Position numbers and translations under genes: made by a program. Positions 2,130 through 58,309 of a stretch of 64,000 bases of DNA are shown here, in pieces. The stretch lies in NCBI GenBank assembly GCA_965223545.1, contig OZ245006.1, positions 6,368,001 to 6,432,000 on the forward strand. Direction: 5' to 3'. The notes beneath the pieces were generated by a model. It made no database searches. It saw nothing but the letters and a program-made list of their open reading frames with translations, and was not told the DNA's origin. Origin of the DNA: Planctomycetota bacterium (GTDB lineage: Bacteria; Planctomycetota; UBA1135; UBA2386). The stretch's first letter is position 1; every line of letters begins with the position of its first letter.

Positions 2130-3704
2130 ATGGCTCGATTACCCAACCTCCGCTCGAACCCCTTCGACCTGCACGGTCGCGAGGTCGATCTGTTGATCGT
2201 CGGCGGGGGGATCCACGGCGCGGCGTTCGCCCGGGAGGCGGCGGTGCGCGGCGCGTCGGTCGCGTTGGTCGAGCGCTCGGACTTCGTCGCCGGCACGAGC
2301 GCGCGCAGCTCGCGGTTGATCCACGGCGGTGTGCGCTACCTCGAGCAAGGCCACATCCGACTGGTGCGCGAGGCGCTGCGGGAACGCGAGCGGTTGCTGC
2401 GCGGCGCGCCCCACCTGGTGCGACCGCTGCCGATGTTGATGCCGTTCTACGCGGGGGCGGGCAAGGCGGCGTGGAAGCTGCGGTTGGGGCTGAAGCTGTA
2501 CGACGTGCTCGCCGGGCGCAGCACGATGCCGCGCTCGCGCGCGTACCGGGCAAAGGACTGTCTGCGGCTCTTCCCGGGGCTGCGGGCCGAAGGCTTGCGC
2601 GGCGGGGTGCTCTACTACGACGCGGCCACCGAGGACGTGCGGCTGACCACGGCGGTGCTGCTCGCCGCGGCGGAGGCCGGCGCCACCCTGTGCAACTACG
2701 TCGAGGTCGTCGGCGCCGCGGACGGCGCGGTGCACCTGCGCGAGCAGCGCAGCGGCGCCGACCTGCGCGTCCACGCCCGCTGCGTCGTCAACGCCACCGG
2801 GCCGCGCGTGGATGCACTGCGCGCGCGCCTCGGCATCGACGGCCCCGACCTGGTGCGGGCCAGCCGGGGCAGCCACCTGGTGCTGCCGCCGCTCGGCATC
2901 GAGACCGCGCTGGCGGCGTTCCTGTCCGACGGGCGGATCCAGTTCGTCGTACCGCACCCCACCGGCACGCTGCTCGGCACGACCGAGGTCGCCGGTCGGC
3001 CGGCCGAGGACGAGCCGGGGGTGCCCGACGAAGATGTCGACTACCTGCTGGGCGCCGCCGCCCAGCTGCTGGCCCGGCCACCGGGCCGCGGCGACGTCCT
3101 CAGCGCGTACTGCGGGTGGCGCTCGCTGCCGGCCGGCACCGGCCCCGCCGGGCAGCTCAACCGCGAGGCCTATCTGGTCGAGGAGCGCAGCGCCGCCGGG
3201 CCGGTGCACAGCGTGGTCGGCGGCAAGCTCACCACGCACCGCGCGTTCGCCGAGCGCGGCGTCGGCCAGCTGCTCGGCGTGACGGGCGCATCGCCGACGC
3301 GCACCGCGCCGCTGCCGGGTGGCGCCGGTCCGCGCGAGCCCGAGGATCCCCTGTGGTGGCGCTACGGTTGTGAGGCAGCGGCCGTGCGCGCGCTGGCACA
3401 CGGCTCGCCGGAGCTGCTGCAGCCGTGCTGTCCGCACCGCGAGGTGCTGGGCGTGGAGGTCGTTTGGGGAGTGCGGCGCCTGGGCGCGGTGCAGTTCAGC
3501 GACCTGCTGTTGCGCCGGCTGTTCGACGTGCGGGGGCCGTGTCTCGTGCCCGAGTGCTTGGCCGCGATGCACGCGCTGTTCGCGGCCGAGGGCGATCTGA
3601 CGGCGGCCGCGGGCTACGATGCCGACGTCGCGGCGCTGCGCGCCGAGCTCGACGCGCAGCTCGGCGCGGTCGCGGCACCGTCATGCACGCCGATCTCCCC
3701 GTAG
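2130..3704 (+). CDS. glpD: FAD-dependent glycerol-3-phosphate dehydrogenase/oxidase
   Basis: IVGGGIHG, GTSARSSRLIHGGVRYLE, VVNATGP, SRGSHL, GGKLTT. Confidence 0.9.
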   Translation: MARLPNLRSNPFDLHGREVDLLIVGGGIHGAAFAREAAVRGASVALVERSDFVAGTSARSSRLIHGGVRYLEQGHIRLVREALRERERLLRGAPHLVRPLPMLMPFYAGAGKAAWKLRLGLKLYDVLAGRSTMPRSRAYRAKDCLRLFPGLRAEGLRGGVLYYDAATEDVRLTTAVLLAAAEAGATLCNYVEVVGAADGAVHLREQRSGADLRVHARCVVNATGPRVDALRARLGIDGPDLVRASRGSHLVLPPLGIETALAAFLSDGRIQFVVPHPTGTLLGTTEVAGRPAEDEPGVPDEDVDYLLGAAAQLLARPPGRGDVLSAYCGWRSLPAGTGPAGQLNREAYLVEERSAAGPVHSVVGGKLTTHRAFAERGVGQLLGVTGASPTRTAPLPGGAGPREPEDPLWWRYGCEAAAVRALAHGSPELLQPCCPHREVLGVEVVWGVRRLGAVQFSDLLLRRLFDVRGPCLVPECLAAMHALFAAEGDLTAAAGYDADVAALRAELDAQLGAVAAPSCTPISP

Positions 3705-5095
3705 CGCCCGACCTGCCGGACCATCGCACCTGGCTGAACACCCCGCGGCCACTCTCGCTGTACGGAGAGCTCTGGGGGCACGTCGTGGTCATCTGCTTTT
3801 GGAGCCGCAGCGATGAGCACTCGTGGGTCGTCCTGCGCCAGCTCGGGCAGATCGCCGCCGAGCTCGGGACCCGGCCCTTCGTCGTCGTCACCGTGCACGC
3901 ACCGGTGTTCCCCTGTGATGCCGACGAGGATGCCGTGCGGCGGGCCATCGTCGAGCGGCGCATGCGGCTGCCGGTGCTGATCGACGAGGGCAACGCGGTG
4001 TGGTCCGCCTACGAGTGCCGTTCGTGGCCGACGGTGCTGGTGCTCGACGGCGAGGCCCGGGTCTGTTTTCGCGGCGCCGGCGAGCTCGACGTGGACCGCC
4101 TCCAGCGCGGCCTGCGGGGCCTCCTGGACGACGCCGAGCAGCAGGGGCTCTTGGTCGGTGCCCACCTGCCGCCGGTGGCGCCGCCGGCTGCGCCACCGGC
4201 CGGCGGCCTTTGCGACCCCGGCCAGCTGACGTTCGACTCCGAGCGGGGGTGGCTGTGGTTGGCGGAGACCGGGCGCGCCCGCGTCTTGGCCTTCGACGCG
4301 AGCGGCGCCCCGCGCGCCGTGCTCGGTGGTCCTGAGGTCGGCGCTGAGGTCGCCCTGCACTTGCCGGCCGAAGTCGTCGGCTGGCGTGCTCCCACCGGCG
4401 TCGCGGTTGCCGGTGACCGGTTGTTCGTCAGCGATCGGGAGGGCGGGGTGTGGTCGGTGGACCTGCGTGGTCGTACCGCGCAGCTGCTGCCGATGCCACG
4501 CGAGTTGCACGTGCCGATCGGACTGGCGTTCGGTGACGCGGGGCTGTTGGTGGCCGCCGCGGGCAACCATCAGATCTGGCGGTGGGATGCCGCGTCTGGG
4601 CACGCGAGCGTGTGGGCCGGGACCGGCCGCGCCCGGCATGCCGATGGCGACCGCGAGACGTGCGGGTTCGTCCAGCCGGTCGCGGTCGCGGTCGCCAACG
4701 ACGGTGCCGTCGCGGCGGTCGACGCCCTGGCGAGCGCGTTGCGCGTCGTCGACGCGGCGGGCGCGCGGGTCGAGACCCTGGTCGGCCGCGACGATGCCGC
4801 GTTCGGCGACGCCGACGGTGGCGGTTCGGTCCCGCGGTTGCAGTGGCCCGGCGCGGTGTGCGCGTTGCCGGATGGATGGGCCGTCGTCGATCGCGGCAAT
4901 CACAAGCTGCGGGTGTGGGCCGAAGCAGACCGGACGATGCGCACGGTCTTGGGGCCGGCGCATGGCATGCGCGACCCGCGCGGGGTCGGCTGCGACGGCA
5001 CTGCGTTGTGGGTGGTGTGTGGCGACGCGGAGGGGCTGGTCCGGGTCGGGCTGGCGGACGGCGCGGTGGACGAGGTGGCCGTGGCGCTACCGTGA
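3683..5095 (+). CDS. Thioredoxin-like + NHL-repeat protein (NHLRC2/SOQ1-like), CxxC absent
   Basis: WLNT.RPLSL, VVTVHAP.F, VW.AY....WPT; NHL repeats (AAGNHQIW, RLQWP.AV, DRGNHKLR). Confidence 0.8.
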   Translation: MHADLPVAPDLPDHRTWLNTPRPLSLYGELWGHVVVICFWSRSDEHSWVVLRQLGQIAAELGTRPFVVVTVHAPVFPCDADEDAVRRAIVERRMRLPVLIDEGNAVWSAYECRSWPTVLVLDGEARVCFRGAGELDVDRLQRGLRGLLDDAEQQGLLVGAHLPPVAPPAAPPAGGLCDPGQLTFDSERGWLWLAETGRARVLAFDASGAPRAVLGGPEVGAEVALHLPAEVVGWRAPTGVAVAGDRLFVSDREGGVWSVDLRGRTAQLLPMPRELHVPIGLAFGDAGLLVAAAGNHQIWRWDAASGHASVWAGTGRARHADGDRETCGFVQPVAVAVANDGAVAAVDALASALRVVDAAGARVETLVGRDDAAFGDADGGGSVPRLQWPGAVCALPDGWAVVDRGNHKLRVWAEADRTMRTVLGPAHGMRDPRGVGCDGTALWVVCGDAEGLVRVGLADGAVDEVAVALP

Positions 5096-5112: not shown

Positions 5113-5200
5113 CTCAGCGCGGCCACGGCCGCAACCAAACTCGGATGCCGGTCTTGCCGGCGCGGTCTGGAAGGCCCGACACATCCGCCGCCGCGCTGAG
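5113..5200. repeat. Palindromic REP-like element (module A), empty copy of the IS110 target
   Basis: Terminal IR CTCAGCGCGGC (5113-5123)/GCCGCGCTGAG (5190-5200), inner CGGATG/CATCCG; closely similar to 54186-54208 joined to 56149-56213; lies between convergent genes. Confidence 0.88.
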
Positions 5201-5209
5201 CCCGGAAGC

Positions 5210-6343
5210 TCAAAAACGAACGCTCTGTAGGGTGCCGTCCGGTCGCAGGACGCTGAAGTCGGCGCGCTGACCGACGGCGATCCGGCCGCGGTCGTCCAGC
5301 CCGAGGACCGCCGCCGGATTGGTGGAGATCGCGGCAGCCAGCTGCACCGGGTCGGCGCCGACGGCCGCGGCGAAACGCCGGGCGGCCTCGCTCATCGTCA
5401 GCGCGGCGCCGGCGAGGGCGCCGCGCGCGTCGCGCACGACCCCGTCGCGGTGCTCGACCGGCGCACCGCCGAGCGTGTAGGACCCGTCGGGCATGCCGGC
5501 GGCGCCGACGCTGTCGGTGACCAGCACGGTGCGGGCGGTCCCCAGGCAGCGCCACGCGACGCGCAGCATGCCGGGGTGCACGTGCACGCCGTCGGCGATC
5601 AGCGATGCCCGCAGGCGATCGTCGGTCAACGCCAGTCCCGCCAGCCCCGGCGCGCGATGATGCAGCGGGTCGCTGGCGTTGAACAGGTGGGTGACCAAGC
5701 CGGCGCCCGCCGCCACGCACGCGTCGACCGCGTCCGGGTCTCGCGCCGTGCCATGGCCGAGCGCGACCGCCACGCCCGCTGCGCGCAGCGCGGTGACGGC
5801 GTCCGCCGCGCCGGACCGGTCGGGAGCCAGGGTCACCAGGGCCAGCTGGCCCTGGGCGGCGGCCAGCAGTTCTTCGATCCGGGCTTTGGTCGGATCGCAC
5901 AGCGCGTCCGGCGGGTGTGCGCCGGGAACGCTGAGGAAGGGACCTTCGAGGTGCAGGCCGAGCGGAGTGGCCTGGGTCGTGCCCCCGGGGTGCGCCGCAA
6001 TCCACCGGGCCACCGCCTCGACCTGGGCGCAGAGTCGCTCCCAGGGCGCGGAGATCAGGGTGGGGGCGAAGGCGACCGCGCCACCGCGCCACACCTGCGC
6101 GGCGACGGCGGCGAGGGCCGCGGGATCGGCCTCGTCGACGGCGTGCCCGCCGGCGCCGTTGACCTGTAGATCGATGGCTCCGGGCAAGAGAGTGCCCTCG
6201 ATCCGAACCCGATGCGCCGTGCGGGCTGCGGGAGAGGTCGTGATCGCGCGGATCCGGTGTTCCTCGATCAAGAGATGCGGGCTCTCCAGCAGGCGGCCAT
6301 CGACGGCGGCCACATCAGCGGTGAGGAGCACTGTTTCGCCCAT
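5210..6343 (-). CDS. nagA: N-acetylglucosamine-6-phosphate deacetylase
   Basis: PGAIDLQVNGAGG, GLHLEGPFL, VTLAP, ALGH, THLFNA, IADGVHVHP, LVTDS, LAGA; real gene is the C-terminal part of the 900-aa ORF. Confidence 0.93.
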   Translation of the reverse strand: MGETVLLTADVAAVDGRLLESPHLLIEEHRIRAITTSPAARTAHRVRIEGTLLPGAIDLQVNGAGGHAVDEADPAALAAVAAQVWRGGAVAFAPTLISAPWERLCAQVEAVARWIAAHPGGTTQATPLGLHLEGPFLSVPGAHPPDALCDPTKARIEELLAAAQGQLALVTLAPDRSGAADAVTALRAAGVAVALGHGTARDPDAVDACVAAGAGLVTHLFNASDPLHHRAPGLAGLALTDDRLRASLIADGVHVHPGMLRVAWRCLGTARTVLVTDSVGAAGMPDGSYTLGGAPVEHRDGVVRDARGALAGAALTMSEAARRFAAAVGADPVQLAAAISTNPAAVLGLDDRGRIAVGQRADFSVLRPDGTLQSVRF

Positions 6344-51691: not shown

Positions 51692-52657
51692 TCAGATGCC
51701 GCGGTGCATCCACCAATCGACAGCGCCGAACCAAAGACGCGATAGCCCCTTGCGGAAGCGTTCCGAGTTCCCGCCGAGGTACATTCCACGGGCTGCCCAC
51801 AGCGCGTAGCCGGCGGCCCAATGCAACAGGGCTTGCTCCTCGTCTCGGGGAAGACCCAAGGAGTGCACGACGCGCGCGTACTCGGTGCGGGCCCAGGCGA
51901 CGTTTTCGCGGTAGTGCCGGAAGGTGGGCACCAAGTGAACTCCGAACAGCGCGCGCAGATTCTGGTGATCGCAGAAGATCCGCTTGCCCTCGGCGATCGG
52001 TGTTCGGTTGTGCGAATGGATGACCGCACTGCGCGGCTCGAACACGATGCGGTGGCCGCCGAGGATCAGGCGCTTGCCGAACGCGACGTCCTCGCCGAAA
52101 CGCCGATGGCCAAAGGGGTGCCGTTGCCATGCCGCGCGGCGCACGCTGCCGGCGACGTTGTCGTAGGCGCACCGCTGCAGGCGTTGCATCGGCTCCAGGG
52201 TGGCGAACTCCGCTTCGCTGGCGGGCTCTTGGACGGCGGGCTCGGTCTTGCCGGCGGTCCATTCAGCCAGCCGCTTCGCGATGAACGGATTGCAGTCCGG
52301 GCGGGGAATCTGCCGGCAGTAGGCCGCACCGACGGCGGCATCGTCGTATGCGGCGAGCAGCCGCGATAGCCATTGGTCGTCGGCAGGCGTGGCGTCCTGA
52401 GTCAGCAGCACGATGACGTCACCGCGCGTGCTGGCGATGGCCTGGTCCCGGGTGGCGCCGTGGTTGAACTCCGCTTGGTCGATCACGGTCACCGAAAAGC
52501 CGTGCCGCTGCAGGCACTCGACGGTGCCGTCGGTCGAGCCGCTGTCGATGGCGACCCGCTCGAGCTGCTGCGCGCCGGGCTGGCGATCGACGGCGGCAAG
52601 CACTTCGCCCAGCAGCGGCATGCCGTTGAGGGTGGGGATGACGAGGCTTGCCTGCAC
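51692..52657 (-). CDS. Glycosyltransferase family 2 (rhamnosyltransferase-like)
   Basis: VIPTLNG, IDSGSTD, FNHGATR, LTQDA, RQIPR, GED, HSH. Confidence 0.87.
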   Translation of the reverse strand: MQASLVIPTLNGMPLLGEVLAAVDRQPGAQQLERVAIDSGSTDGTVECLQRHGFSVTVIDQAEFNHGATRDQAIASTRGDVIVLLTQDATPADDQWLSRLLAAYDDAAVGAAYCRQIPRPDCNPFIAKRLAEWTAGKTEPAVQEPASEAEFATLEPMQRLQRCAYDNVAGSVRRAAWQRHPFGHRRFGEDVAFGKRLILGGHRIVFEPRSAVIHSHNRTPIAEGKRIFCDHQNLRALFGVHLVPTFRHYRENVAWARTEYARVVHSLGLPRDEEQALLHWAAGYALWAARGMYLGGNSERFRKGLSRLWFGAVDWWMHRGI

Positions 52658-52779
52658 GCGGTCTATCAGCGTCGCGCAAAGGCGTGCGCGACGCCAGCTT
52701 CGGCCCGTGCTCGCCACGACCGTGGTCGAGAGCTACCTTGGTCCACCGCCGCGCCGCCGCGCGGCCCGTCCGGCGACGC

Positions 52780-53985
52780 ATGCACATTCTCGTCTTGACC
52801 CCGCAGCCGGTCGACCGACTGGACCACGGCGGCCGCATCCGCACCCGGATGCTCCTCGACGCCGCGTTGACGATCGGGCGCGTGACGGTGGCCGCGCCGC
52901 GGCCCGAGGTCGACGAGGCGGGAGTCCGGGAACGCATGCGCGCGATGGGCGTGCAGGTCGAGTGGCTGCCAGCGGGGGCCGGCGTCTCGTCGTGGTCGGC
53001 CAAGGTGCGCTGCTGGGCGAGGGGTCGCAGCCAAGTGATGACGCGGCGCTGGGGCGCGGGCGCCCCGCAGGCGGTGTCCGCCTTGCTGGCTCGGGGGGTC
53101 GACCTGCTGGTCGCCGATGCGAGTCACGCGCTGCCGGCGTTGCCGGAGTCCTTGCCGGTGCCGTTGGTCGTCCAGTTCCACAACATCGAGTCGGCGGTGC
53201 TATCGCGGCGGGAAAGCGTGCGCCGCGGCCCCGCCGAGCTCTTCGTGCGCAGGATCGAAGCCCGTTGCACGCGCGCGTTGGAGAGGCGGTGGGCCGCGCG
53301 CGCGGCGGTCTGCGTGCCGGTTTCCGAGCTCGATGGGAGGCGGTTGCGGGAGGTGGAGTCGCGGGCGGTGGTCGAAGTCGTGCCCAACGCGGTCGCGGTC
53401 GAGACCCTGCCGCTGTTGCCGCCGCCGCCGCGCGGTGCGCCGCGGTTGCTGTTCGTCGGCAGCTTCGATTACCCACCCAATCGCCAGGCCGCTCTCGAGC
53501 TACTGCGCGAGCACCTGCCCGTTCTCGCCGCGTCGCATCCGGACCTCGAGGTCTGCCTCGTCGGCGAGGACCCATTCGGCGAGATCGCCGCGCACGCGTC
53601 GGCCGCCGGCGCGACCGCCACGGGCAGGGTCGATGACCTCGAGCCGTACTACCGCGCGGCCACCGCGGTCTACTTGCCGATCCGGTCGGGCGGTGGGACG
53701 CGGATCAAAGTGCTCGAGGCGATGGCCCACGGTCGGCCGGTGCTGTCGACGGCGGTGGGGGTCGAGGGCTTGGACTTGGCGCCGGACCGTCACTACTTGC
53801 GTTTCGAGCGCCCCGCCGAGGGGGTCGCGGCGGTCGACGCGCTGCTGCGCGACGGCGTCGCCGACATGGTCGAGCGCTGCCGTCAGCTGGTCTGTCGCGA
53901 CTTCGACCAGAGGGTCGTGGTCCCGCGGCTCGCCACCATTCTGCGCCGTGCCGTAGAGGGCGGCGTGCACCAGCGGGAGCGGTGA
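52780..53985 (+). CDS. Glycosyltransferase family 4
   Basis: FHNIES, VPNAV, FVGSFDYPPN, GGTRIKVLEAMA.G.PV..T..G.EG. Confidence 0.9.
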   Translation: MHILVLTPQPVDRLDHGGRIRTRMLLDAALTIGRVTVAAPRPEVDEAGVRERMRAMGVQVEWLPAGAGVSSWSAKVRCWARGRSQVMTRRWGAGAPQAVSALLARGVDLLVADASHALPALPESLPVPLVVQFHNIESAVLSRRESVRRGPAELFVRRIEARCTRALERRWAARAAVCVPVSELDGRRLREVESRAVVEVVPNAVAVETLPLLPPPPRGAPRLLFVGSFDYPPNRQAALELLREHLPVLAASHPDLEVCLVGEDPFGEIAAHASAAGATATGRVDDLEPYYRAATAVYLPIRSGGGTRIKVLEAMAHGRPVLSTAVGVEGLDLAPDRHYLRFERPAEGVAAVDALLRDGVADMVERCRQLVCRDFDQRVVVPRLATILRRAVEGGVHQRER

Positions 53986-54208
53986 CTCAGCGCGGCCGAG
54001 GCCGCAACCAACTCGGAGCATTCCGCGACCCGAGCGTCGGTCGCGGGTCCCGCGGTCGCCGGCGGCCGCCCTGAGCCCAGAGGCCAGTGTTGTCTTCGAG
54101 CCTCCGGGAGCTGCGTTGTCGAAGTTCCAGCGACATCGAGCCTTCCGAAAGGTTGTCGCCGCGCGAAGATTTGCGGACCCTGAGGCTCAGCGCGGCCGAG
54201 GCCGCAAC
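53986..54208. repeat. Composite REP/BIME-like array: module A (53986-54075), module B (54098-54188), left part of a second module A (54186-54208)
   Basis: CTCAGCGCGGCCGAGGCCGCAAC occurs at 53986 and 54186; arms CTCAG.GCGGC/GCCGC.CTGAG and GAGCCTC/GAGGCTC. Confidence 0.85.
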
Positions 54209-54239
54209 GGTATGTGTGGTTCCATGATCTGCGAAGCTA

Positions 54240-54530
54240 GAGTTCTCCACACCCGTCGCGCCGTAGCGGTGTGGAAGACTCGCGCGATGGTGCAGCCGCA
54301 GGAGTCGTGTCGGGAGTCTGGTCATCGGCCGCAAGAGAGCTTAGGGTCCCCCGGCGTGCGACGGAGAGGTTTCGCGATCTGCCGCAATGGTGGCGCTTCG
54401 AGCGGCCCCTCATTTGGTTCTGCGACTCTCCTCCCGCGTGGGGGACCCGATTTAGGAGATTGGCGGCGTGAGAAATCACGGCCCCGAAACACGAACCGTT
54501 TTGGCGACTCGCCTCCTCAGGCGGACTGCG
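54240..54530 (+). ncRNA. Predicted bridge RNA
   Basis: Stems 54246-53/54268-75, 54292-304/54513-29, 54344-52/54440-48, 54363-75/54421-31; loops carry target matches (GCCGCAA 54381-87, TTTGGTT 54413-19) and donor matches (TTAGGAGAT 54452-60, ACCGT 54495-99); transcript ends unknown. Confidence 0.8.
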
Positions 54531-54582
54531 CGGGTAGGGAGAGTCCTCTCGTCGACACTCACTCGTTGAACATGGAGGGGAC

Positions 54583-56085
54583 ATGAATCGATTCGTTGGA
54601 TTGGATCTCGGCTTGAGGAGCAAGCACCGAGCCGTCGTTCTGGATGGTGCGAAGTCTCGGGGCAGACCGTTTTCAGTCGAGAACAGCCGTGAGGGTATTG
54701 ACCTTCTGCTGCGCCGTGCACAGGAAGGTGCCGAGGGTCCGGTGAGCTTCGTGATGGAACCAACGGGGTTGGCGTGGCTGCCCATCGCGGCGCACGTGAA
54801 CGCCGCAGGGTTCCAGATCTACGTGAGCAAACCACAGAAGCTGAGCGACCTGCGGAAGTTCTATAGCAAGCACACCAAAACCGACGTAGTAGACGCCGAG
54901 GCCGCTGCGCGTCTGCCGCAGATGGATCCAAAGGGCGTCCACCAGCTGCGTGTTCCAACTGCCGACGAGACGACGATCCGTCGACTCGTGAAGCGGCGTG
55001 AGCGGTTGGCGCGCGAGCTCAGCGACCACAAGCGTCGTGTGCACGCGATACTGGTACTGGCGAATCCCAGCCTCATGAAGGCCTTGGGGGCAGAGAAGTT
55101 CAGTGCCGCTAAGATGGGGTTTCTGCGGCGCTACGTCGATCCGGTGAAAGCGGTCGGCCTTGGGAAGAGTCGCTTGGAGCGCTTCTTGACGAAGCGATCC
55201 AAGGGAACGCATGACCCGTGCTTGGTCGACCGCGTGCTCGAGTCCTGCCGACAGGCCGCCGAGTACTACGCTGAGCTGCGAGCTGCGGGGCAGATGCCGT
55301 TCGACTACGAGGCCATCCAAGAGGATGTGGTGTACGAGCTGGATGAGATCGAGCGCAAGAACACGGACGTTCGCAAGCTCGACGCAAAGATCAAGAAGCT
55401 CTACCTGGGCGTCGATCCTGACCGAACACTCGAGCAACTGCGCGGCGTCGGTCCCACGATCGCTGCGGCCATCGAAGCCTTGGTAGGCGACATCGCGCGG
55501 TTCTCGAACGGCAAGAAGTTCGTGAGCTACTGCGGACTGTGTCCACGCCGGAAGCAGACGGGCATGAGCGACCCCTCGATGCCAATCACCAAAACCGGCC
55601 AACGAGTACTCAAGAAGTACCTCTACCTAGCAGCTGACGTCGCTCGCCAGTGGGATCCGGATTTCGCGGCGTACTACGCTCGCCGCTACGCCGCAGGTGA
55701 TCACCACAACCTCATCCTCATCGCATTGGCTGGCAAGATGGCGCGCCGCGTCTACGCCCTCCTGAAGCGTCGCGACAGCCAGCGCGCCGATGACAAGCCG
55801 GCGTCGACGCAAGTCCGCTACGTCCTGCGAGACGCCGACGGCAACGAGCTCACGAAGGTTGCCGCGCGCGCGCTCATCGCAGCCAAGTTCACGCGCAGCA
55901 TCGTCGCGCCACAGCGGCATGAGCGCGACCAACGGCGACAGGGACGAGTGGGGACTCCGACGACGAGGGACTTGAGTGGCCGCCCAATGGACGCCACAGG
56001 CCTGGCCGTGGAATCCCCACGTCAACCTCACCCGATCGGTGATCTCATGCAAGAACACTTCCCTGGTCTTGTGGAAGAGTCCTGA
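54583..56085 (+). CDS. IS110-family DEDD recombinase/transposase (500 aa)
   Basis: GGAGG RBS; D8 (VGLDLG), E59 (MEPTG), D101/D104 (KTDVVDA); GVGP..A......GD..RF......SYCGLCP....TG. Confidence 0.96.
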   Translation: MNRFVGLDLGLRSKHRAVVLDGAKSRGRPFSVENSREGIDLLLRRAQEGAEGPVSFVMEPTGLAWLPIAAHVNAAGFQIYVSKPQKLSDLRKFYSKHTKTDVVDAEAAARLPQMDPKGVHQLRVPTADETTIRRLVKRRERLARELSDHKRRVHAILVLANPSLMKALGAEKFSAAKMGFLRRYVDPVKAVGLGKSRLERFLTKRSKGTHDPCLVDRVLESCRQAAEYYAELRAAGQMPFDYEAIQEDVVYELDEIERKNTDVRKLDAKIKKLYLGVDPDRTLEQLRGVGPTIAAAIEALVGDIARFSNGKKFVSYCGLCPRRKQTGMSDPSMPITKTGQRVLKKYLYLAADVARQWDPDFAAYYARRYAAGDHHNLILIALAGKMARRVYALLKRRDSQRADDKPASTQVRYVLRDADGNELTKVAARALIAAKFTRSIVAPQRHERDQRRQGRVGTPTTRDLSGRPMDATGLAVESPRQPHPIGDLMQEHFPGLVEES

Positions 56086-56127
56086 ACAAGCCGTGCACAC
56101 GCGATGTCGAGCCCCAGCGAAAACCCC

Positions 56128-56133
56128 TTGACA
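56128..56133 (+). promoter_or_regulatory. Outward-facing -35 box at IS right end (half of circle-junction promoter)
   Basis: TTGACA 15 nt from the end; end-joining places TATGTG (54211-54216) 17 nt downstream. Confidence 0.65.
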
Positions 56134-56148
56134 TGACTTAGGAGATAT

Positions 56149-56323
56149 CAAACACGGATGCCGCTCTTGCCGGAGCGGCTTGGAAGGTCCGACCCATCCG
56201 CCGCCGCGCTGAGCCCGGAGGCACTGTCTCTCGGAGCCTCCGGCGCGGCGGCGACGTTGCCATGTCGGCGGCGTCGCCTCGAGAATGTTGTCGAAGCTCG
56301 ACGGTTCGAGGCGCCGGAGGCTC
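56149..56323. repeat. Right part of interrupted module A (56149-56213) plus module B (56234-56323)
   Basis: Continues the 5136-5200 sequence with few mismatches; 13-bp arms GAGCCTCCGGCGC/GCGCCGGAGGCTC. Confidence 0.87.
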
Positions 56324-56447: not shown

Positions 56448-58082
56448 TCACGCCGATTCCTCCGCCGCGGCGCGGCACAACGCGGCGACGGCCTCGCGGT
56501 CGTCGGGGGCGCCGACCGCGCAGCGGAGTCGCGGTCGCAGCGCCGCGATCGTCTTGGCCTCGCGCTCGCGCGCGCAGAGCACGCCGCCGAGCCGCGCCGT
56601 CAGGCCTCGCCAGAAGTGCAGCTCGCGCATGTTTTCCAGACTCGCCTCGGGCTCATCGAGCGCCGGCAAGACCAACAGGCAGCTCTCGTCGATCAGCGGT
56701 CGGGGCGCGCAGGCCAACGCCCACGGGTCGCGGAAAACGACCGCGTCGTAGTCGGTCTCGCGAAGGGCGTCCCGCACGCGTTCGGTGGCGAGGACGTCCC
56801 CGGTCGCGCCCCAGTAGCGGCGTGGAACGAGGCCGAACACGTCTTGCGTCGGCGGCTCCGCCCTGCTGGTCAGCGGGATGGTGTGTTCGATCCAGACCGT
56901 ATCGTCGGGGGCCGGCGTCGGCTCCGGCTCGTCGCAGCCGACGGACAGGATGCGCAGTGGTTGCCGCAGCCGTGGATCGATCGTTCGGCGGTGACGGCTG
57001 ACGTGGTTGGCGACCCGCAACACCTCGCGGTCGCTGCGGGCGTGGTGGATCCGGCTGCGCGTGCGCGCCCACCACGCGCGCGGCAGGCGGGGCAGCGTCG
57101 CCAGCAGCGCCGCGGCTTGGTCCCGCGCGGACAGCTGGGCGCGGTCCTTGAGCAGGTTCCACGGCAGCAGCAGCGCGCGCCGCAGCACCATGTCGGGCGC
57201 GGTGACACTGCGCCAGAAGAGGAGCTCGCGGTTGCGGCGGTCCAGCCGTCGCACGCGCTGGCGTCCCAGCACGGAGACCGTGGTGCCTTGAAAGCCGTGA
57301 TGGGCGATGGCGCCGGGTTCGTACAGCACGCGCCATCCGCGTCGCCATGCTTGGTAGGACAGGCTCATGTCCTCGACGTAGCACGGGTGGTACAGATCCT
57401 CGAAGCCACCGAGCGCCAGATATTTCGCCCGGTCGAACGCGCTGCTGCCGCCGCCGGCCCACATCGCCGGCACCAGGTCCGTCGCCTGGTGCTGCACCTG
57501 GACTTGGTGGATCGCGCCGGCGCGAAACTCCGCGCGGGTCAGACCGGTCTCGAAGCGCGTGCCGTCCATCTCGATGCGGGCGGTTACCGCGAACACGTCG
57601 TTGGCACCGAACCGGGCGAGCAACCGCCGCAGGAAGTCCCGTTCGACGCGCATGTCGTTGTTGACGAACACGAGGATGTCTCGGGTCGCCGCCTCGACGC
57701 CGGCGCGGTTGCCGCGGATGAAGTAGCGGTTGGTGTCGAGCTCGACGAGCCGCACACCTTCGTGCGCGCGCACGACGTCGCAGGACTCGTCCTCGCTGCC
57801 GTTGTCGACCACGATGATCTCGTGGTCCCCCGGCGTCGCATCCACCGCCTCCTGCAGCGGTGGCAGGATGGCCCGCAGGTAGGCGGCGCGGTTGTAGTTG
57901 AGGACGATCACCGACGCGTTGTGCGCCGGGGGCTCCGGCGCGGGGCGCTGCCGCGCGCGCAGCATTCCGACGACCGGCGTCGCGATGAGATCGAGGACCA
58001 GGGTGACTGCGGCGACGGCCCAGCCGTAGAGCGCGACCGGCGGAATCAGCACCAGTCCCAGTGCTGCCCGCACGCGCTTCAA
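56448..58082 (-). CDS. Glycosyltransferase family 2 with C-terminal extension
   Basis: SVIVLNYN, VVDNGSED, GNRAG, FVNND, YVEDMSL; start about 58082 (TTG) or 58073 (GTG). Confidence 0.87.
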   Translation of the reverse strand: MKRVRAALGLVLIPPVALYGWAVAAVTLVLDLIATPVVGMLRARQRPAPEPPAHNASVIVLNYNRAAYLRAILPPLQEAVDATPGDHEIIVVDNGSEDESCDVVRAHEGVRLVELDTNRYFIRGNRAGVEAATRDILVFVNNDMRVERDFLRRLLARFGANDVFAVTARIEMDGTRFETGLTRAEFRAGAIHQVQVQHQATDLVPAMWAGGGSSAFDRAKYLALGGFEDLYHPCYVEDMSLSYQAWRRGWRVLYEPGAIAHHGFQGTTVSVLGRQRVRRLDRRNRELLFWRSVTAPDMVLRRALLLPWNLLKDRAQLSARDQAAALLATLPRLPRAWWARTRSRIHHARSDREVLRVANHVSRHRRTIDPRLRQPLRILSVGCDEPEPTPAPDDTVWIEHTIPLTSRAEPPTQDVFGLVPRRYWGATGDVLATERVRDALRETDYDAVVFRDPWALACAPRPLIDESCLLVLPALDEPEASLENMRELHFWRGLTARLGGVLCAREREAKTIAALRPRLRCAVGAPDDREAVAALCRAAAEESA

Positions 58083-58309
58083 CCCGCCGGCTCGTCCTTG
58101 AGCTTGGCCAGCTCGGCCTTCGCCGCGGCTAGCTGCTCGAGCACAGCCAGACCCTGCGCCGCCATGGCGTCGATGCGTGGCTGCTGCGCCTCGCGCTGTT
58201 CGCGCGCGGCCAGGGCTGTGCACAACGCCGCGAGCTGCTGCTCGATGCGGTCGAGCTGCGCTTGCATGGCGTCCAGGCGTTGTTCGAAGCGAGCGATGCG
58301 GAAGACCAC
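58079..58309 (-). CDS. Small coiled-coil protein
   Basis: Heptad pattern FEQRLDAMQAQLDRIEQQL...LEQLAAAKAELAKLK fills the gap in a co-oriented operon; start uncertain. Confidence 0.55.
   Translation of the reverse strand: MVFRIARFEQRLDAMQAQLDRIEQQLAALCTALAAREQREAQQPRIDAMAAQGLAVLEQLAAAKAELAKLKDEPAG

Follow-up and report, generated by a model that had tools for sequence, protein, structure and literature searches.

A vacant copy of a palindromic repeat as a probable target of an IS110-family element with a mismatched core and a threonine at the catalytic serine position

How does an insertion sequence come to occupy one copy of an intergenic repeat and leave another copy empty? This question is raised by a planctomycete DNA stretch of 64,000 nucleotides, here called the window, in which one repeat copy is interrupted by an insertion sequence and another, at 5113–5200, is not (Table 1). 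The first-pass annotation regarded 5113–5200 as the vacant counterpart of the occupied site, fixing the ends of the element without any target-site duplication. End-to-end alignment bears this out. The empty copy matches 54186–54208 joined to 56149–56213 without gaps at 79 of 88 positions, and there is a single way to place the 1940-bp insert that gives back the empty sequence, with nothing duplicated, so that the ends of the element lie at 54209 and 56148. A one-base duplicated core was considered and rejected, since it would fail to restore the empty sequence. The 13-mer claimed for the empty copy, GGCCGCAACCAAA, is found at 5127–5139. The copy next to the element does read GGCCGCAACCAAC at 54000–54012, but the reported single mismatch to the guide proved to be a lost base: in the alignment to the class consensus the A-run is one A shorter with no substitution, and contigs of other copies add an A at this place. 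A literature search on the 13-mer gave nothing pertinent. The occupied array is flanked by glycosyltransferase genes that converge on it and belong to a polysaccharide locus (52648–53985 and 56448–58223). In our reading, to which we assign a probability of about 0.85, an active bridge-RNA element of the IS110 group has 5113–5200 as a vacant target; the element would be addressed by its guides, need no shared core, likely use a threonine nucleophile and occasionally leave GGTAT scars when it is lost.

Table 1. Features of the window discussed in the text.
Feature	Position	Strand	Basis or context
Empty copy of the 88–91-bp palindromic repeat, interior class A	5113–5200	+	between converging ORFs, 3425–5095 (+) and one ending at 5210 (−)
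Target hairpin, 5-bp GC stem, 4-nt loop; 3′ arm is the left target	5119–5132	+	sequence; DNA folding of all 106 sites
12-base guide-matched target, vacant; predicted cut 5135/5136	5128–5139	+	genome junctions and guide covariation
Neighbouring empty repeat copy, class B; right target minus one A	53986–54075	+	alignment, contigs
Linker in the tandem unit of ~195–201 bp, a site used elsewhere by a second IS110-family element	54076–54185	+	
Occupied repeat copy, left part with hairpin and left target	54186–54208	+	
IS110-family element, 1940 bp, 11 identical genome copies, no flanking duplication	54209–56148	+	
Inverted pair of DnaA-box-like 9-mers, or 5′ RNA hairpin	54243–54278	.	left end of element; resemblance to the DnaA consensus
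Loop with covarying left target guide 54380–54388 and a second guide at 54413–54418	54362–54432	+	alignment, covariation
Predicted donor-binding loop: left donor guide ~54453–54461, right donor guide 54489–54497, cut-adjacent pair 54498–54499	54447–54505	+	
500-aa DEDD recombinase (D8, E59, D101, D104); threonine 326 (codon 55558–55560) at the catalytic serine position	54583–56085	+	
TTGACA, 17 bases from a weak −10-like hexamer (54211–54216) if the ends are joined	56128–56133	+	putative promoter activity
Right part of the occupied repeat copy, then linker to 56324	56149–56213	+	

The assignment of the element to the IS110 family is confirmed by Pfam and NCBIfam profiles, which score over their cut-offs (208.7 bits for NF033542, cut-off 140), and by the presence of the DEDD residues. 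The recombinase gene is preceded by 374 bp and followed by 63 bp of non-coding sequence; a long upstream region of this kind is typical of the IS110 group. The 8.1-Mb genome (70% GC, two contigs) carries 11 copies of the element. They are 100% identical, lie in one orientation and are all joined to their surroundings at GCCGCAAC^CAAA, and none of the 11 junctions has a true duplication. Ten copies are inserted in the palindromic repeat, of which the genome holds about 160 copies: nine in complete repeat copies and one, just behind a stop codon, in a copy that has no left arm. In this last case (C1:7271524-7273463) the left flank retains the guide-matched bases alone, possibly because the element, once inserted, deleted the rest. 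The eleventh insertion lies in non-repeat DNA, at the same 12-mer with a different first base.

For a census of the target, the elements were removed from the genome in silico. The perfect 12-mer then occurs at 106 sites, 11 occupied and 95 empty, where a fourth-order Markov estimate expects about one; a 19-base pattern occurs 91 times, and its reversed control not once. By its left arm, 164 copies of the repeat are counted; they form 113 arrays of period 195–201 bp and fall into at least three interior classes. A rough gene caller gave 4606 confident ORFs covering 81% of bases, and 94 of the 95 empty sites and all 11 insertions fall outside them. Convergent gene pairs make up 21 of the 71 gaps that host the repeat, against 278 of 2297 gaps overall. 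The repeat is multi-copy, palindromic, extragenic and clustered, and it behaves like REP/BIME sequences; membership in that class is not shown, because no Y1_Tnp (RAYT) gene is flanked by the repeat and every one of the 14 Y1_Tnp matches in the genome is at least 6.8 kb away from any copy. Twelve places (e.g. C1 1355010 and 2260328) carry a multi-copy element whose weak Y1_Tnp scores are almost the same; it is not linked to the repeat.

Copies of the element in unrelated sequence, which would speak against a fixed target, are not seen: ten of the 11 are in the repeat and all are at the same 12-mer. The comparison with IS621 and its REP sites, in which an intergenic palindrome serves as safe harbour, describes where the insertions are, all of them outside called genes, but not what is recognised. 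The insertion address is the 12-mer, since the single perfect 12-mer clearly outside the repeat is occupied as well; "safe harbour" names the outcome. Genes are spared because the address is a conserved part of an intergenic repeat. In contigs of run X4, a joint of 54208 to 56149 was found at a depth of 3.3 against approximately 463, with one side of 26, under the reliability length. As the joined sequence is unique in the assembly, it could represent a rare empty allele of the occupied site. Loose contig ends in runs X5 and X6, often at GATC, were disregarded.

The RNA guides postulated for the element were assessed in its relatives. The search gave 107 protein matches, of which the top 60 were aligned, and 79 metagenome loci were fetched. 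Thirty-nine of these and locus L001 entered the guide comparison; seven of the 40 were dropped as they carry no left-end motif, and the remaining 33 together with the element of the window gave 34 elements with 27 distinct guide sets. A fixed register served to place the right ends, except in L057, where this was done by hand; L063 does not conform. The left guide agrees with its own left flank at 6.63 of 8 positions on average over the 27 sets (3.83 when shuffled), and the right guide pairs with the right flank at 57 of 60 positions in 15 elements (shuffled 27.5). Not one of 5000 shuffles reached any of the guide–flank scores, although the relatives are not independent and such tests therefore overstate significance. 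The register of the left guide slips by one or two bases between subclades. No target is matched by the first base of this guide, which is exactly where the off-repeat site deviates. The guides proposed from the window alone are thus real, and with covariation of 5′ RNA guides and flanks across 27 relatives, bridge-RNA targeting of the element appears well supported.

The RNA would consist of two look-alike loops, with 93.3% of cells in the stems paired and two-sided changes in 14 of 26 pairs, against 46–54% for slid controls. Single sequences fold weakly better than shuffles (z −1.9 as RNA, −1.7 as DNA), and RNAalifold recovers the inner stems alone. The handshake bases of the target loop do not match this element's donor. 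An alternative left guide at 54327–54335 was ruled out, as it lies outside the aligned loop, and the one Rfam match, far below the gathering score, is due to chance, so that no Rfam family is assigned. The same GCCGCAAC motif hosts elements of 54–58% protein identity from other samples (L057/L070/L071, L058 and L065); L057 has CGAA on its right flank and a corresponding change in its guide. The repeat motif is multi-copy in two of 60 relative genomes. When the phylum was scanned for the left junction, 43 of 400 other genomes gave one or two matches, a level similar to that of the reversed control.

The first-pass annotation further suggested that guide match may explain which copy was used. 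This is true for copies as a class: nine of 101 arm-bearing copies with a perfect 12-mer are occupied, compared with none of 63 without it (Fisher p=0.011). It is not true for the individual copy, because 95 of the 106 perfect sites (about 90%) are empty, which means that the match does not pick the copy and that 5113 is one of many ordinary vacancies. Taken alone, variants of the right target have 0/30 sites occupied (p=0.09) and variants of its last base 0/19 (p=0.20). The particular preference for CAAA over CAAC that had been expected is not significant in this genome (0/7 CAAC sites occupied, p=0.53); the base concerned, the last of the right target, does pair with the guide in 15 of 15 relatives. 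Guide match looks necessary for insertion and far from sufficient. Of the sites with a G at base 14, directly after the 12-mer, four of eight are occupied, against seven of 98 sites with another base, in a post hoc count (p=0.004), a bias that is not explained by the guide.

A second determinant may be the hairpin over the left target. It has been proposed for ISPpu10 that structure and sequence are matched together, and we give close to an even chance to the same being true here, with the repeat picked for its stem-loop as well as for the 12-mer. A hairpin with a 4–5-bp stem and a 4-nt loop is present at ten of the 11 occupied sites, in the geometry given for ISPpu10 in the available part of that report. 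Even the off-repeat site has its own 5-bp hairpin, as stable as that of the repeat (−6.3 against −5.8 kcal/mol) and equalled by 4.8% of random upstream sequences, although displaced by one base. The arm-less occupied site, however, has no hairpin (−1.1 kcal/mol; 80% of random contexts fold as well), unless its arm was lost after insertion, and many left flanks of relatives, judged by eye and unscored, show no obvious one. Nearly all empty sites also carry the hairpin, so this genome cannot separate it from the 12-mer. The evidence is mixed: the GC hairpin probably helps and is not strictly needed.

In IS621, donor and target recombine at a common CT core with an almost invariant T that is read by the protein, and the catalytic serine is S241, according to the available text of the reports (PMC11208160, PMC11208158, PMC13626964). 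The shared core that marks IS621-type bridge RNA systems is absent here: the dinucleotide before the cut is AC in the target and AT at the right end of the element. An AT on the circle would follow from a model of top-strand exchange. Among 18 elements with both ends, the core is identical between target and donor in two and differs in 16; the base before the cut is the same in five, and 13 have AT as donor end. In 26 of 27 sets (shuffled 12.4, with none of 5000 shuffles reaching the observed value), a guide base of the donor loop pairs with the target base at that position, which may be C, G or T, and the target-loop base gives the same tally. The distant relatives L004, L006 and L007 (27% identity; read by eye) have a duplicated GT core, so the mismatch is a property of the subclade. 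In L098 and L099, near-identical elements, the last right-end base is C and T, respectively, as if heteroduplex repair had converted it to the target base. Guide bases that, in both loops, change along with the target base while the donor end stays fixed were not found described in the main texts of the literature searched; supplements may list the clade.

Threonine 326 aligns with S241 of IS621, in place of the conserved C-terminal catalytic serine. In the best 60 of the 107 protein matches this column holds serine in 44, threonine in 16 and nothing else, with seven switches on a quick tree, five of them forced by well-supported branches. The threonine is, by alignment, a conservative variant of the catalytic serine. 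No close paralogue of the recombinase was found in the genome; together with the 11 identical copies, this suggests that the threonine enzyme itself is active. The threonine likely serves as the nucleophile. A close homologue was not found among 60 relative genomes either, and the literature search gave nothing on threonine at the catalytic position of an IS110 recombinase.

Two repeat copies contain GGTAT exactly at the cut (C1:537452-537456 and C1:611333-611337). Their interior classes differ, and next to one of them in tandem lies an intact copy of nearly the same sequence. GGTAT is the first five bases of the element, which also ends in TAT; loss between the two TATs would leave this scar and break the 12-mer. 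The two sites are therefore apparent loss scars. It is unlikely, in our view, that these scars and the small deletions at the cut are all due to host slippage in which the recombinase has no part. TAT is present at both ends, the A-run and CAA repeat of the target slip easily, and the common 1-base and 4-base deletions at the cut are explained as well by slippage of the A-run. A loss of 1935 bp at a 3-base microhomology, with exact element ends, twice and in different classes, fits ends that are gapped or held by the recombinase better. The likeliest route would be slippage or mis-joining during repair of the single-strand gap left by copy-out, a process described for IS621 in the accessible text. 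By either route, the scars are records of earlier visits by the element. A literature search on footprints of insertion sequences gave nothing pertinent. It is very improbable that there is no choice by guide at all, with gene insertions purged and the element merely surviving in intergenic repeats, or that identical copies were mis-assembled into 11, as the junction is base-exact in all 11 with distinct flanks, guides covary with flanks in relatives, and the element contig has, by a rough measure, about ten times the depth of unique flank in two runs (377.6 against 35.3 and 4577.8 against 462.8; one run may be the source sample).

We propose the following route for the guide-addressed element. 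It would be copied out as a circle, the junction of which unites a −35 and a −10 box; the joined ends read TTGACA-17-TATGTG, and a promoter scan of the linear region gave nothing relevant. From the junction promoter an RNA carrying two guide loops would be made; its target loop would read GCCGCAAC as the left half and CAAA as the right half of the target. The recombinase, by chemistry taken from IS621 and with threonine as the likely nucleophile, would join the circle between the two half-targets with no duplication. The guides would adapt to the target's last base and the donor end would remain AT, so that no common core is needed. Occasionally, mis-registered loss via TAT at both ends would leave GGTAT and destroy the site. 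We infer the circular intermediate, the junction promoter, the RNA and the donor core from sequence; the contigs of four runs, which drop rare forms, list no circle joint.

The inverted pair of 9-mers near the left end resembles the DnaA box. It lies at a fixed distance from the end in 16 of 27 elements (shuffles 0.1), with perfect boxes in L062 and L064, and it could equally be a conserved RNA hairpin. The literature search returned no title on DnaA boxes in ends of insertion sequences. More tentatively, and with the odds somewhat against it, one may picture a clade freed from the shared-core rule, with the base before the cut programmed by both loops, a threonine nucleophile and a 5-base scar that confers permanent immunity on the site; the DnaA-box-like pair may then tie circle formation or expression to the replication initiator.

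As far as the published accounts are available, the element and IS621 share a recombinase with DEDD and C-terminal domains, a long left end with a two-loop RNA, the guide order (left target, right target, left donor, right donor), a 4-base right target guide and an intergenic palindromic repeat as target. IS621 has a CT core, S241 and about 328 aa, whereas this element has AC against AT, a guide-programmed last target base, a threonine and 500 aa. The available text on ISPpu10 from P. putida describes a REP target, an approximately 5-bp stem and a 4-nt loop over the left target, and mostly non-coding sites, as here; ISPpu10 has a duplicated CT, which this element does not, and one occupied site here has no hairpin (bioRxiv 10.64898/2026.03.19.712850). 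ISPpu9, ISPa11, ISPsy8 and ISRm19/22 likewise insert at one position of a multi-copy extragenic palindrome in the parts of the reports at hand (PMC1525189; 10.1101/2025.01.17.633520). The same sources give ISPpu9 AG on both sides, while the repeat here is a 195–201-bp unit that receives two IS110-family elements at two positions. ISEc21 and ISEc11 (seekRNA), in the available text, also lack a duplication, have the upstream non-coding region in the IS110 group and form a promoter from abutted ends (PMC11187229); the lack of duplication alone is thus not new.

The second IS110-family element, of 1476 bp, is IS1111-like, with a short left end, a long right end and sub-terminal inverted repeats. 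All four of its copies (C1:614437-615912, 5085730-5087205, 6849574-6851049 and ~7063615-7067772) lie at one linker position of the repeat unit, the fourth being split by other DNA of about 2.5 kb. A third element, also present in many copies and weakly similar to IS110, has 17 left-end matches (e.g. C1 5180809, 1013920 and 2828846); it lies mostly in another short palindrome, whose motif occurs about 85 times.

Targeting of repeats by IS110 elements is already established, and it is the mismatched core, the threonine and the scars that, by sequence comparison, appear to set this element apart. One nearly closed genome offers a natural dataset of 11 insertions, 95 vacancies, 63 mismatched copies, one off-repeat site and two scars. 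The scars bear on the question of whether such elements are cut out or copied out. If the threonine variant is active, phosphoserine chemistry would tolerate a secondary alcohol. Should the clade prove to work with no common core, one of the limits stated for IS621-type editors would be lifted, and boundary searches that rely on a repeated core would recover too few such elements.
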